Source: Eledone cirrhosa (lineage: Eukaryota). From it: 64,000 bases of DNA. The notes beneath the pieces are model-generated. The model was not told the DNA's origin. It saw nothing but the letters and a program-made list of their open reading frames with translations, and did not search any database. Shown here piece after piece: positions 30,301-37,400 of this stretch. The stretch covers positions 282,596,001-282,660,000 of the forward strand of contig OZ024743.1 in NCBI GenBank assembly GCA_964016885.1, given 5' to 3'. A program made the translations under genes and the position numbers. Within the stretch, counting starts at the first letter, position 1; every line of letters starts with the position of its first letter.

Positions 30301-33300
30301 TCAAAATCACTGTGGTACTGAACCTGTCATAGGTAATTTTACAGTAATGAAATTATTATTATTAGTAATACTGTGAAAAAAAAGACAGACATTGCTACTC
30401 TGATTCTATTGAATAGCTTTTCTAGTAAGTTGATAGAGAGATCATAAAACTGAATATCATTGAAAGTACTATAGTGTATAATAATAATAACAATAATAGT
30501 GTGGTGTGGTGTGTGTGTGTGTGTGTGCGCACACACACACACACACACAAATATGATCTGTAAACTTCCATGTATGTAATGTATAAATAAATTAGCAAAT
30601 ACAAATAAGTTCCCATAAAAATGACCTTTCTTAGTATTATAGTTTAAATATTAATAAATAATTAATAAATTGAAATATATTCACTAGACATTATATTTCA
30701 TTGAAAAGAGAATATTTTTGTAAATCTTCCATTTTTTTTTTCTTTTCTATTAAACCAAAAAACAAAGATACAACTTTAAATCATGTCCCTTTCCACCCTC
30801 TCAAAGTTGCTTTATTACATTAGAAAATAAATGTTTTCAAATGATTATAAATATAAACCAAATTAGTATTGAATTTATAAAACAATGAATTGTACAGTTC
30901 ACTACAAACGAAAGGTTCCTTGTGATTGAATTGAGTAAAAAATTTAAACAATGGGAAAAAGAAAATTTGACTTAATTTATATTAACAAAAAAAAAGGAGT
31001 GTTGAAACTATATGTAAGTGGTGCAGTAATTTATTTCTATGGGTAAAGGAAAAATGCACTTCTGAATTTAGTTAGTTTAGTAAAACTATTATATAAAACA
31101 AAACCTTACAGAAAAACAGATAATCATAAATTTCATAGTTGTCTTAATTAAGCAAGAGTGTAAACACCTTATGTGACTTATAAGTCACACCTCCATTTTA
31201 AACACTATTTACAATGAATCACATATGAGTTTGCAGGTTTGCTTTTTCATGTCATATTTTCATGAAAAAGGTGCAACTTATACATGAGTATATACAGCAA
31301 TTCAAATTAAGGTTTCACATAGTTAAAATAATAAATAAGCATTTTATTTACTTTTTAACTTTTTTTAATATATAAATTATACAAAGGAACATTAATCATA
31401 ACCTATATCATTAATGTATAGAAGTAATTCCTAGCTAAAGCTTGTCTCAACTCACAGACCAAATGACTACATTCTCAAATAACCATAGACAACATACCCA
31501 AGCACTAATCAAGTCAACAAAAGAACTTATGCTAAAAATAGAAGCCAAATTTTGCTAAAGATCTTACCCTACTATCTTAAAGGATCTTCACAAAGTAATA
31601 CAGTTCTAGATATATTATGTCTGAAGAAACAAAGACAAGATGGTTAAGTCTGTTCAATCAGTGATGAACTAGAGCCAAACAACTAGAGCACTAGTACAAC
31701 AACATCCTAAAATTACTATATCTACAACTTTTGCAATAATAATATTATCAACAAAAATATATGTTGAATAATTCCTTGTATGAATTCTATACAGTCATAT
31801 ATATATTTTAAAACAAAATATAAAACAGTAATATTTGAAAATCAGCTATGAACTTCTTTGAAAAAGTGATGGCTGCAAATCATACAATAAAATAAAAAGT
31901 AAGCTTCAGAGAGACCCTATTGAGATGCATCTAGGAAGTGGTTTTGAATCACTTTAGATTCTATGTGTAGAAAATTCATACTAACACCCCTCAGAAAGTA
32001 CAAATACAACAACAATCCACAGTAGTCAACATGGTTAAACACTCATTTATGGATATTTACAAAATATCCAATTACAAAATATCGAGTTACTGATTATTTA
32101 TACTTATGGGAGATAAATAAAATATCAAATATCTATAAATAGGTTTGTCATAGTCGTATTTTTTTAAATAAGTATAATTGTTTCTACTTTTGGCACAAGG
32201 CCAGCAATTATCCCAGTGTATTACTGGTACTTTATTTTATCGACCCCGTAGGGATGAAAGGTAAAGTTAACCTCGGCGGGATTTGAACTCAGACCATAAC
32301 TCTTTGCTGCAAAGCATGGCGTCCGACCCTCTACCGATACTGCCAACCCACAGTATAATTAAGACTTAATAAGACTTCAATTAAAAAGATAATTAACAGC
32401 TCAAACTATAGGCCATAAACTTTGATAATTTCTTGCTTATTTGTTTCCTCATTAAGTAAGAAATACCTTTCAGATTTTATGCTAATAAGAATTAATGAAT
32501 AATCATGATTAACTATTTTTAAAAGCATACGTTACCACACAGCAGAAAATTAGGCACACTATGACAATTAAAAAAAAAAGGGTTGGGATCAGAAAATAAC
32601 TTATTTATAAGAGTATAATATTTCTGAAATGAAGTGTTGTATGTTCTAGTTCTACAAAAAATAAGAATTCAAAATAGTTTTTGGAAAAGTTCCAATTATC
32701 TCAGATTAATCTTATATTCTTAAAATTGACTCTACATTACCTATCATCATGTGAAGAATGTTATAAGAATATAATGCTGCTAATGGACTCCCAAAATTAA
32801 GAATCACATTGAAAATTGAAAATATTTGAATATTCAAATATTAAAAACAGATTAATTCTTAATGTATAGTAACGATTTACCAGAAAATATTTAAATCGAC
32901 TGTGTTAATTCATATCTTTACAAGTGGATAAATTGCTGTGAAAATTTGCAGAATTAGAGTAAAAACTATTTTTTTTAAATGTAATGCAGTCCGTGCTGTT
33001 TTGTACTTTTCAAGAATATTTTGTTAATGTCATTTCATATTGTGCACAATACTAAATATGCTTCATTCATATCAAATATATAATACTTTTATTAATTTTA
33101 CAATACAAAATCACAGTGAAAAAACTTGATTAATATTTTCTTTAAGTGACAATAGTAAATTGATTAAAACCAAATAACAGTAAACAATCCTTCCATGCAT
33201 CATAACTTAATATACCAGACTGATATTTTTTGTGTTTTCCAAGTGTTGCTTTATATCCATAGGTTCTGCAACAGTTGTATAGGAACCTTTCTGTTTCTCA

Positions 33301-37400: not shown

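Follow-up and report, generated by a model that had tools for sequence, protein, structure and literature searches.

How did an exon come to start like one of its neighbours and end like another? In DNA of the octopod Eledone cirrhosa, a preliminary description made from the sequence had singled out such an exon, called R3 here, as an unequal crossover between two paralogous exons caught in the act, naming the assembly of two haplotypes in tandem as its own alternative. We therefore asked to which gene R3 belongs, how it is built, whether it is real and by which process it may have been gained.

The locus is part of an octopod LASP gene

The window that we analyzed is a stretch of 64,000 nucleotides (contig OZ024743.1, positions 282,596,001 to 282,660,000), which is AT-rich and contains no N or gap. 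Its minus strand is, judging from the encoded exons, carrying part of an octopod LASP gene. LASP, the LIM and SH3 protein, is a member of the nebulin family with a LIM-nebulin-SH3 organization. We found eight nebulin-repeat exons in the window, R1 to R8, and not the seven that had been described. In transcript order, the exons are:

37296..37400, minus strand: R1, nebulin-repeat exon, 105 nt, phase 0-0 (spliced R1-R2 join in run X4, see below)
36476..36580, minus strand: R2, nebulin-repeat exon, 105 nt, proposed donor of the 3' part of R3 (alignment)
34562..34666, minus strand: R3, junction exon, 105 nt, R4-type to nt 2 and R2-type from nt 45
33216..33320, minus strand: R4, nebulin-repeat exon, 105 nt, proposed donor of the 5' part of R3
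30219..30323, minus strand: R5, nebulin-repeat exon, 105 nt
28238..28345, minus strand: R6, nebulin-repeat exon, 108 nt
24873..24980, minus strand: R7, nebulin-repeat exon, 108 nt
20642..20816, minus strand: R8, conserved LASP exon, 58 aa
16318..16545, minus strand: LASP linker exon (approximate bounds, tblastn)
9966..10013, minus strand: short LASP linker exon (approximate bounds, tblastn)

The Pfam nebulin repeat (PF00880) matched all eight repeat exons, four of which reached its curated cut-off of 20.1 bits (R8 with 38.9, R5 with 25, R1 with 21.1 and R7 with 20.8); R2-R4 (18.4-19.4) and R6 (12.3) scored below it, each exon being only part of the Pfam module. The 58 aa of R8 were 100% identical to the LASP proteins of O. 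sinensis and O. vulgaris, which were its top matches, and 18 of 23 candidates among annotated LASP proteins gave a match, 17 with an SH3 domain and 15 with a LIM domain in precomputed domain assignments. The repeat and linker exons are colinear with LASP of the type of O. sinensis XP_036359930.1 and O. bimaculoides XP_052824630.1, with several residues of the repeat exons differing from O. sinensis, O. vulgaris and O. bimaculoides. Using tblastn, none of the LIM, SH3 and first repeat exons was found in the 64-kb window.

R1 to R5 are each 105 nt long, with phase 0 at both ends and AG/GT boundaries. R6 and R7, both of 108 nt, form a second paralogous exon pair; an R6-type exon is present in only three of the compared proteins and is skipped in long O. 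sinensis isoforms. Several broken retrotransposon copies, in which Pfam recognizes a reverse transcriptase and, after it, a PHD finger, were detected in the presumed intron upstream of R1, at 43476-44609 (minus strand), 52589-53823 (plus strand) and 61133-62311 (minus strand); they lie amid long inverted repeats (94-97%). Mobile-element copies alternate in 47071-62578 with satellite arrays that consist of A and T only and are very long, about 6 kb in one case (54614-60637).

A single switch within a shared 42-nt block accounts for R3

To dissect R3, we compared R2, R3 and R4, each exon being taken with 40 nt on either side, which gave 45 informative sites. A single switch accounts for 44 of these 45 sites in R3: the upstream intron is R4-type at 22 of 23 sites and exon nt 1-2 are also R4-type, while exon nt 45, 46, 48, 49, 96 and 99 are R2-type, as is the downstream intron at 14 of 14 sites. 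The lone exception is intron position -10, where R3 is like R2 and not like R4, and which is one of the four substitutions between the intron copies described below. The mosaic reported earlier, with an R4-type start and upstream intron followed by R2-type 3' codons and downstream intron, is thus borne out by 44 of 45 sites, and the interval given for it (33216..36580) spans exactly R4 to R2. A breakpoint within a shared block of about 40 nt had also been proposed, and R2 and R4 are indeed identical over exon nt 3-44 (42 nt), in the same orientation and within 142 bp at 91.5% identity; the longest perfect matches between the two are 42 and 46 nt. The junction in R3 is seamless, with no bases added and one switch inside uninterrupted identity.

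The introns on the two sides of R3 are copies of one another. Read in the direction of the transcript, the locus runs R2-[B X A]-R3-[B' A']-R4 and contains the following elements:

36537..36578, minus strand: shared 42-nt block (exon nt 3-44) as present in R2, without a difference from R3 and R4
35591..36475, minus strand: intron segment B, copy after R2 (self-BLAST, alignment)
35024..35590, no strand assigned: segment X, 567 nt, in the R2-R3 intron only, holding a (TA)30 run
34667..35023, minus strand: intron segment A, copy before R3, with R4-type acceptor
34623..34664, minus strand: breakpoint interval in R3, which is the shared 42-nt block
33678..34561, minus strand: intron segment B', copy after R3, with R2-type donor
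33321..33677, minus strand: intron segment A', copy preceding R4 and adjoining B' directly, X being absent

The near-identity of these introns, which had been noticed before, holds for their alignment (1232 matches, four substitutions and indels of 1, 5 and 5 nt), but not for their lengths of 1809 nt (R2-R3) and 1241 nt (R3-R4), the 567-nt segment X, which had gone unmentioned, being present in the R2-R3 intron only. The two intron copies of about 1.2 kb are 99.7% identical (self-BLAST E = 0), which, taken with the single switch, is far more than chance would give. We considered whether segment X is a transposon insertion and rejected this, since it lacks a target-site duplication and terminal inverted repeats (best terminal inverted match 8/14) and occurs only once in the window. 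Two short high-copy dispersed repeats, at 32993-33030 and at 33872-33990, draw contigs of thousands-fold summed depth, the latter lying within the duplicated intron segment B.

Other exon pairs have little intron sequence in common (7-13 of 25 nt). R2 (36454-36595) and R4 (33194-33335) share intron sequence beyond the exon, over about 14 nt upstream and about 22 nt downstream. These shared ends may be the trace of an older duplication or conversion that produced the substrate for R3.

At the protein level, R3 differs from R2 by one residue. Spliced together, R2-R3-R4 repeat perfectly with a period of 105 nt over 252 nt (84 residues with a period of 35), and the exon junctions R2-R3, R3-R4 and the older R2-R4 are identical. 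With such a tract and such junctions, the protein would receive an exact copy of one 35-residue module but no sequence that it did not have before, so that the word chimeric, used earlier for R3, is apt for the exon but not for the protein. R3 also shares its length (105 nt), phase (0-0) and AG/GT splice sites with its neighbours, and the earlier view that the array grows in frame holds for the duplicated unit, whose exon is 105 nt long with phase 0-0. Having the acceptor of R4 and the donor of R2, R3 is predicted to be spliced like its neighbours, as a phase-0 cassette. The predicted gain would then be one exact 35-residue actin-binding nebulin module, actin binding by such modules being attributed on a family basis in the portions available of PMC4137052 and bioRxiv 10.64898/2026.10.05.756842.

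Comparison with Octopus LASP points to R3 as the derived copy

Exons of the R2-R4 class (the NYH class) number four in the window, compared to three in the annotated LASP of three Octopus species, although these Octopus counts rest on gene models that could miss exons. Among 166 proteins compared, 23 had three such exons (22 from O. sinensis and 1 from O. bimaculoides), four had two, one had one and none had four; in O. vulgaris, the same three exons are spread over two models together. Considering four exons in the window and three in Octopus, R3 was taken as the derived extra copy, the orthology of the remaining exons to the Octopus trio being by position only. A one-to-one orthology of R1, R2 and R4 to this trio was considered and dropped, as protein identity gave no clear pairing: R2 is equally close to the three Octopus exons (30/30/30 identical).

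NYH-class exons are mosaic across octopus species, R2 being equally close to all three exons of O. sinensis in particular. Such mosaic exons suggest, at the level of sequence comparison, repeated turnover, earlier shuffling or concerted evolution of the array. As for their use, mutually exclusive splicing is contradicted in the relatives, where 23 annotated isoforms contain all three exons and four others contain two; going by these gene models, the exons are probably cassettes in relatives, included together or skipped. A search of short proteins carrying these repeats gave 41 matches among 1748 candidates, none with an R3/R4-type start and none evidently from this species. In Haliotis rufescens, a LASP model named nebulin-like has 773 aa and contains 35-residue repeats at regular intervals, at least eight of them. 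It seems that the LASP arrays of molluscs expanded in several lineages.

Contig depth gives soft support for a real duplication

We then compared four sequencing runs (X1, X4, X6 and X7), out of eight listed, none of them as RNA, over 32400-35230, a region with a single copy of segment B, the beginning of X and the unique flank that follows R4. Run X1 consists of contigs from sample S1, is one of three runs of this sample, has no library type on record and possibly comes from the assembled animal. It contains both intron junctions, the X-less one at a depth of 9 (record 3) and the one with X at 10.7. Shared segments had depths of 17.3, 18.8, 19.2 and 20.1 and the unique flank 5.2 and 6.4, giving a shared/flank ratio of 3.4 (rough interval 2.2-5.4 with the most cautious Poisson setting), which is soft evidence as contig word depth is no copy number, the read length was assumed and the value comes from one flank and one run. 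In a matched pair of X1 contigs that both start at exon nt 66, the R2-type contig had a depth of 20.1 versus 6.4 for the R4-type contig, a ratio of 3.1 (1.5-7.6). We rejected a GC bias behind the ratio: a shared contig with 27% GC has a depth of 19.2 and a flank contig with 25% GC only 5.2. Six X1 contigs from other loci (joints table) had flank-like depths of 4.9-11.5.

The ratio of 3.4 exceeds the value of 2 that the assembled structure predicts and may mean that there are more copies than assembled. Seven genotype models were then fitted to the depths (chi-square on 7 df, with fragment counts halved), keeping in mind that Poisson error understates the true coverage noise and that the baseline comes from two AT-rich flank contigs. 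The chi-square was 43.2 for a tandem-haplotype artefact, the worst of the seven models, and 26.1 and 18.9 for heterozygous duplications, which were rejected for this poor fit; it fell to 9.0 with a homozygous duplication and to 1.7-3.7 with the three triplication models. What is seen is a finished product, for which a presence on both chromosomes fits the depth best, and to call the crossover caught in the act was too strong.

We also considered record 7 of X1, a contig running from segment A through R3 without a difference, as a proof of phase and discarded it, as a merged path could produce it; the phase of R3 is beyond the reach of the contigs because short words cannot carry phase across the 42-nt block that is common to three exons. 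In the RAD runs X6 and X7, with EcoRI/NsiI sites beside R3, we found partial matches at the two dispersed repeats and a few stray partial reads, none of them on R3.

A second sample displays only the intron without X

Run X4 consists of contigs from sample S2 of the same study as S1, and its kind is not on record. It contains a spliced R1-R2 join, and its depth is about 240-270 over exons versus 27-41 over introns; X4 was taken as RNA on the basis of this join and of exon depths far above those of introns. Three of its intron contigs equal the R3-R4 copy without any difference, one of which (623 nt, record 11) runs unbroken across the X-less junction. Segment X has no depth in X4 and the X-A junction is absent, bearing in mind that contigs show presence and not absence. 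The simplest reading is that S2 is an animal with the X-less intron only. Since the X-less intron is found in X4 without X, that form exists on its own. An S2 with this form only is consistent with a single-copy parental allele, with an array that collapsed later or, considered by itself, with an assembly artefact, and it hints that copy number varies between animals. Neither a single-copy haplotype with X nor the reciprocal deletion product was seen in the runs compared. The depth of X4 is zero over 33065-33254, which covers the 3' end of R4 and the first 150 nt beyond it, and the flank further on is covered; this gap may come from a filter or from a haplotype that differs there.

Unequal crossover is the favored origin of R3

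Our main reading, to which we give a probability of about 0.6, is that R3 is the junction of one tandem duplication of an intron plus an exon, likely real and very recent, and that it likely arose by unequal crossover between R4 and R2 on homologues, within the 42-nt block. The ancestral state would have been R2-intron-R4, as deduced from the three exons of the three Octopus species. R4 on one chromosome would have paired with R2 on the homologue, and an exchange inside the 42-nt block would have joined an allele with X to an X-less allele, now in tandem. If two alleles were brought into tandem in this way, the differences between the introns are explained without elapsed time. The divergence of 0.3% between the intron copies is within the allelic range, taking as a guide the heterozygosity of 1.1% given for O. 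vulgaris in the part consulted of PMC6472339. With 99.7% identity over 1.2 kb, the resulting copies would lend themselves to further gain or loss far more readily than the 42-nt block.

The alternative that the preliminary description had itself put forward, two haplotypes assembled in tandem, would here mean that the animal is heterozygous for the 567-bp segment and that both alleles of a single R2-R4 intron were written in tandem through the similarity of R2 and R4, so that there would be no real R3. Copies that differ at an allelic level (four substitutions in 1236 positions), similar X1 depths for both forms (9 and 10.7), relatives with three exons and a second sample with one form only, as segregating single-copy alleles predict, are all in line with such an artefact. 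However, it predicts a shared/flank ratio of 1, when 3.4 (2.2-5.4) was found, it is the worst of the seven depth models, background contigs lie near the flank depth, the window has no N or gap and no second flank haplotype is among the listed differences of X1. If the flank were present at half depth, though, a tandem-haplotype artefact and a homozygous duplication would lead to equal values. Contig depth speaks against this alternative, which we consider quite unlikely, and R3 is likely real rather than misassembled. On the opposite side, the array may be longer than assembled, with about three intron units per chromosome and two R3-like exons as the outcome of more unequal exchange among the near-identical units, a tentative possibility that is compatible with the crossover reading. 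The triplication models fit the depths best (chi-square of 1.7-3.7 versus 9.0), the shared/flank interval of 2.2-5.4 is just above 2 and five of the five listed allele choices in the X1 contigs of segment B are of the type with X. Yet, a homozygous duplication is not rejected when counts are halved (9.0 on 7 df), the baseline comes from two flank contigs that are both AT-rich and the Poisson error is too small for real noise.

If the duplication is real, its tandem nature and the position of its junction in the 42-nt block agree with the unequal crossover proposed earlier, but a template switch or a homology-guided repair would leave the same product. The duplication may have arisen by a switch of template during replication or repair (MMBIR, slippage or annealing) or between sister chromatids, X being lost or gained later. 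The perfect match of just 42 nt in 142 bp at 91.5% is short for efficient recombination: mammalian recombination is reported to fall off at 134-232 bp in the accessible part of PMC2583991, and 42 nt is well short of this range, a mammalian threshold that may not be that of cephalopods. The same source reports crossovers in matches of less than 50 bp between closely spaced alpha-globin genes. An X without target-site duplication or inverted ends would also fit a later deletion from the R3-R4 copy. Against a template switch, the junction has no inserted bases or second switch, except for the substitution at -10, and the R3-R4 intron is the only form in S2, as if existing alleles had been joined, although a later collapse would give the same picture. 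Altogether, we regard this origin as unlikely. It is highly improbable that R3 is old and owes its likeness to exon gene conversion, or that four exons are ancestral and one was lost in the relatives: the mosaic exons across species do indicate that turnover or conversion occurred before, but the duplication extends over entire introns of 1.2 kb at 99.7% identity when other pairs share 7-13 of 25 nt, and three other species have three exons, the intron identity largely refuting both possibilities.

Significance and comparison with known systems

The mechanism is not new, since exons duplicated in tandem are frequent, affecting 7-17% of metazoan genes in the portion seen of PMC3342872, and their recombinational origin is accepted. 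The value of R3 is that of an unusually clean case, in which the two parent exons, the 42-nt interval of the breakpoint and the two intron copies can still be read. A literature search by title and start of abstract, with most subscription journals outside its coverage, found no publication on LASP repeat arrays in cephalopods. Should animals differ in copy number, the locus would offer a direct test of the gain of a LASP module and of its effect on muscle. It is possible, if doubtful, that the array is a live copy-number polymorphism, one animal having two or three units per chromosome and another one. If that was the case, a first crossover in 42 nt would have built near-identical units of 1.2 kb in which copies are now quickly added and removed. 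The single nebulin-family protein would then have more actin-binding modules in some animals than in others, and the array would parallel the human NEB triplicate region in an invertebrate, with one exon as its unit, besides modelling on a small scale the growth of nebulin from LASP.

Lasp of Drosophila has two repeats and acts on thin-filament length, according to the text available from PMC4137052; mollusc LASP models carry several 35-residue repeats, with four NYH-class exons in the gene of the window and three in Octopus. The variable exons of Dscam1 expanded by staggered homologous recombination (as cited in PMC12431208, of which a part was consulted), and the likeness lies in a number of exons that changed through misaligned recombination between paralogous exons. 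However, Dscam1 exons are mutually exclusive and diverging, whereas the LASP exons of relatives are included together. A polymorphism in exon number, at which our data hint in the LASP array, was not seen within Daphnia Dscam, as far as the available part of PMC3236188 goes. In the non-allelic homologous recombination (NAHR) of the alpha-globin genes, close direct repeats and a junction in a perfect match of less than 50 bp are similar to what we observed, but these events were typed in single sperm and cells (PMC2583991, in part), while the LASP event is known from one product only. In human NEB, the triplicate region (TRI) consists of near-identical intragenic blocks of nebulin repeats that vary in number, one block more or fewer being tolerated; its unit comprises eight exons in 10 kb, for which intronic Alu and LINE elements were proposed as the substrate (PMC9109913, from the sections available). 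By comparison, the LASP unit is one exon in 1.3-1.9 kb, with the exon itself as the substrate.
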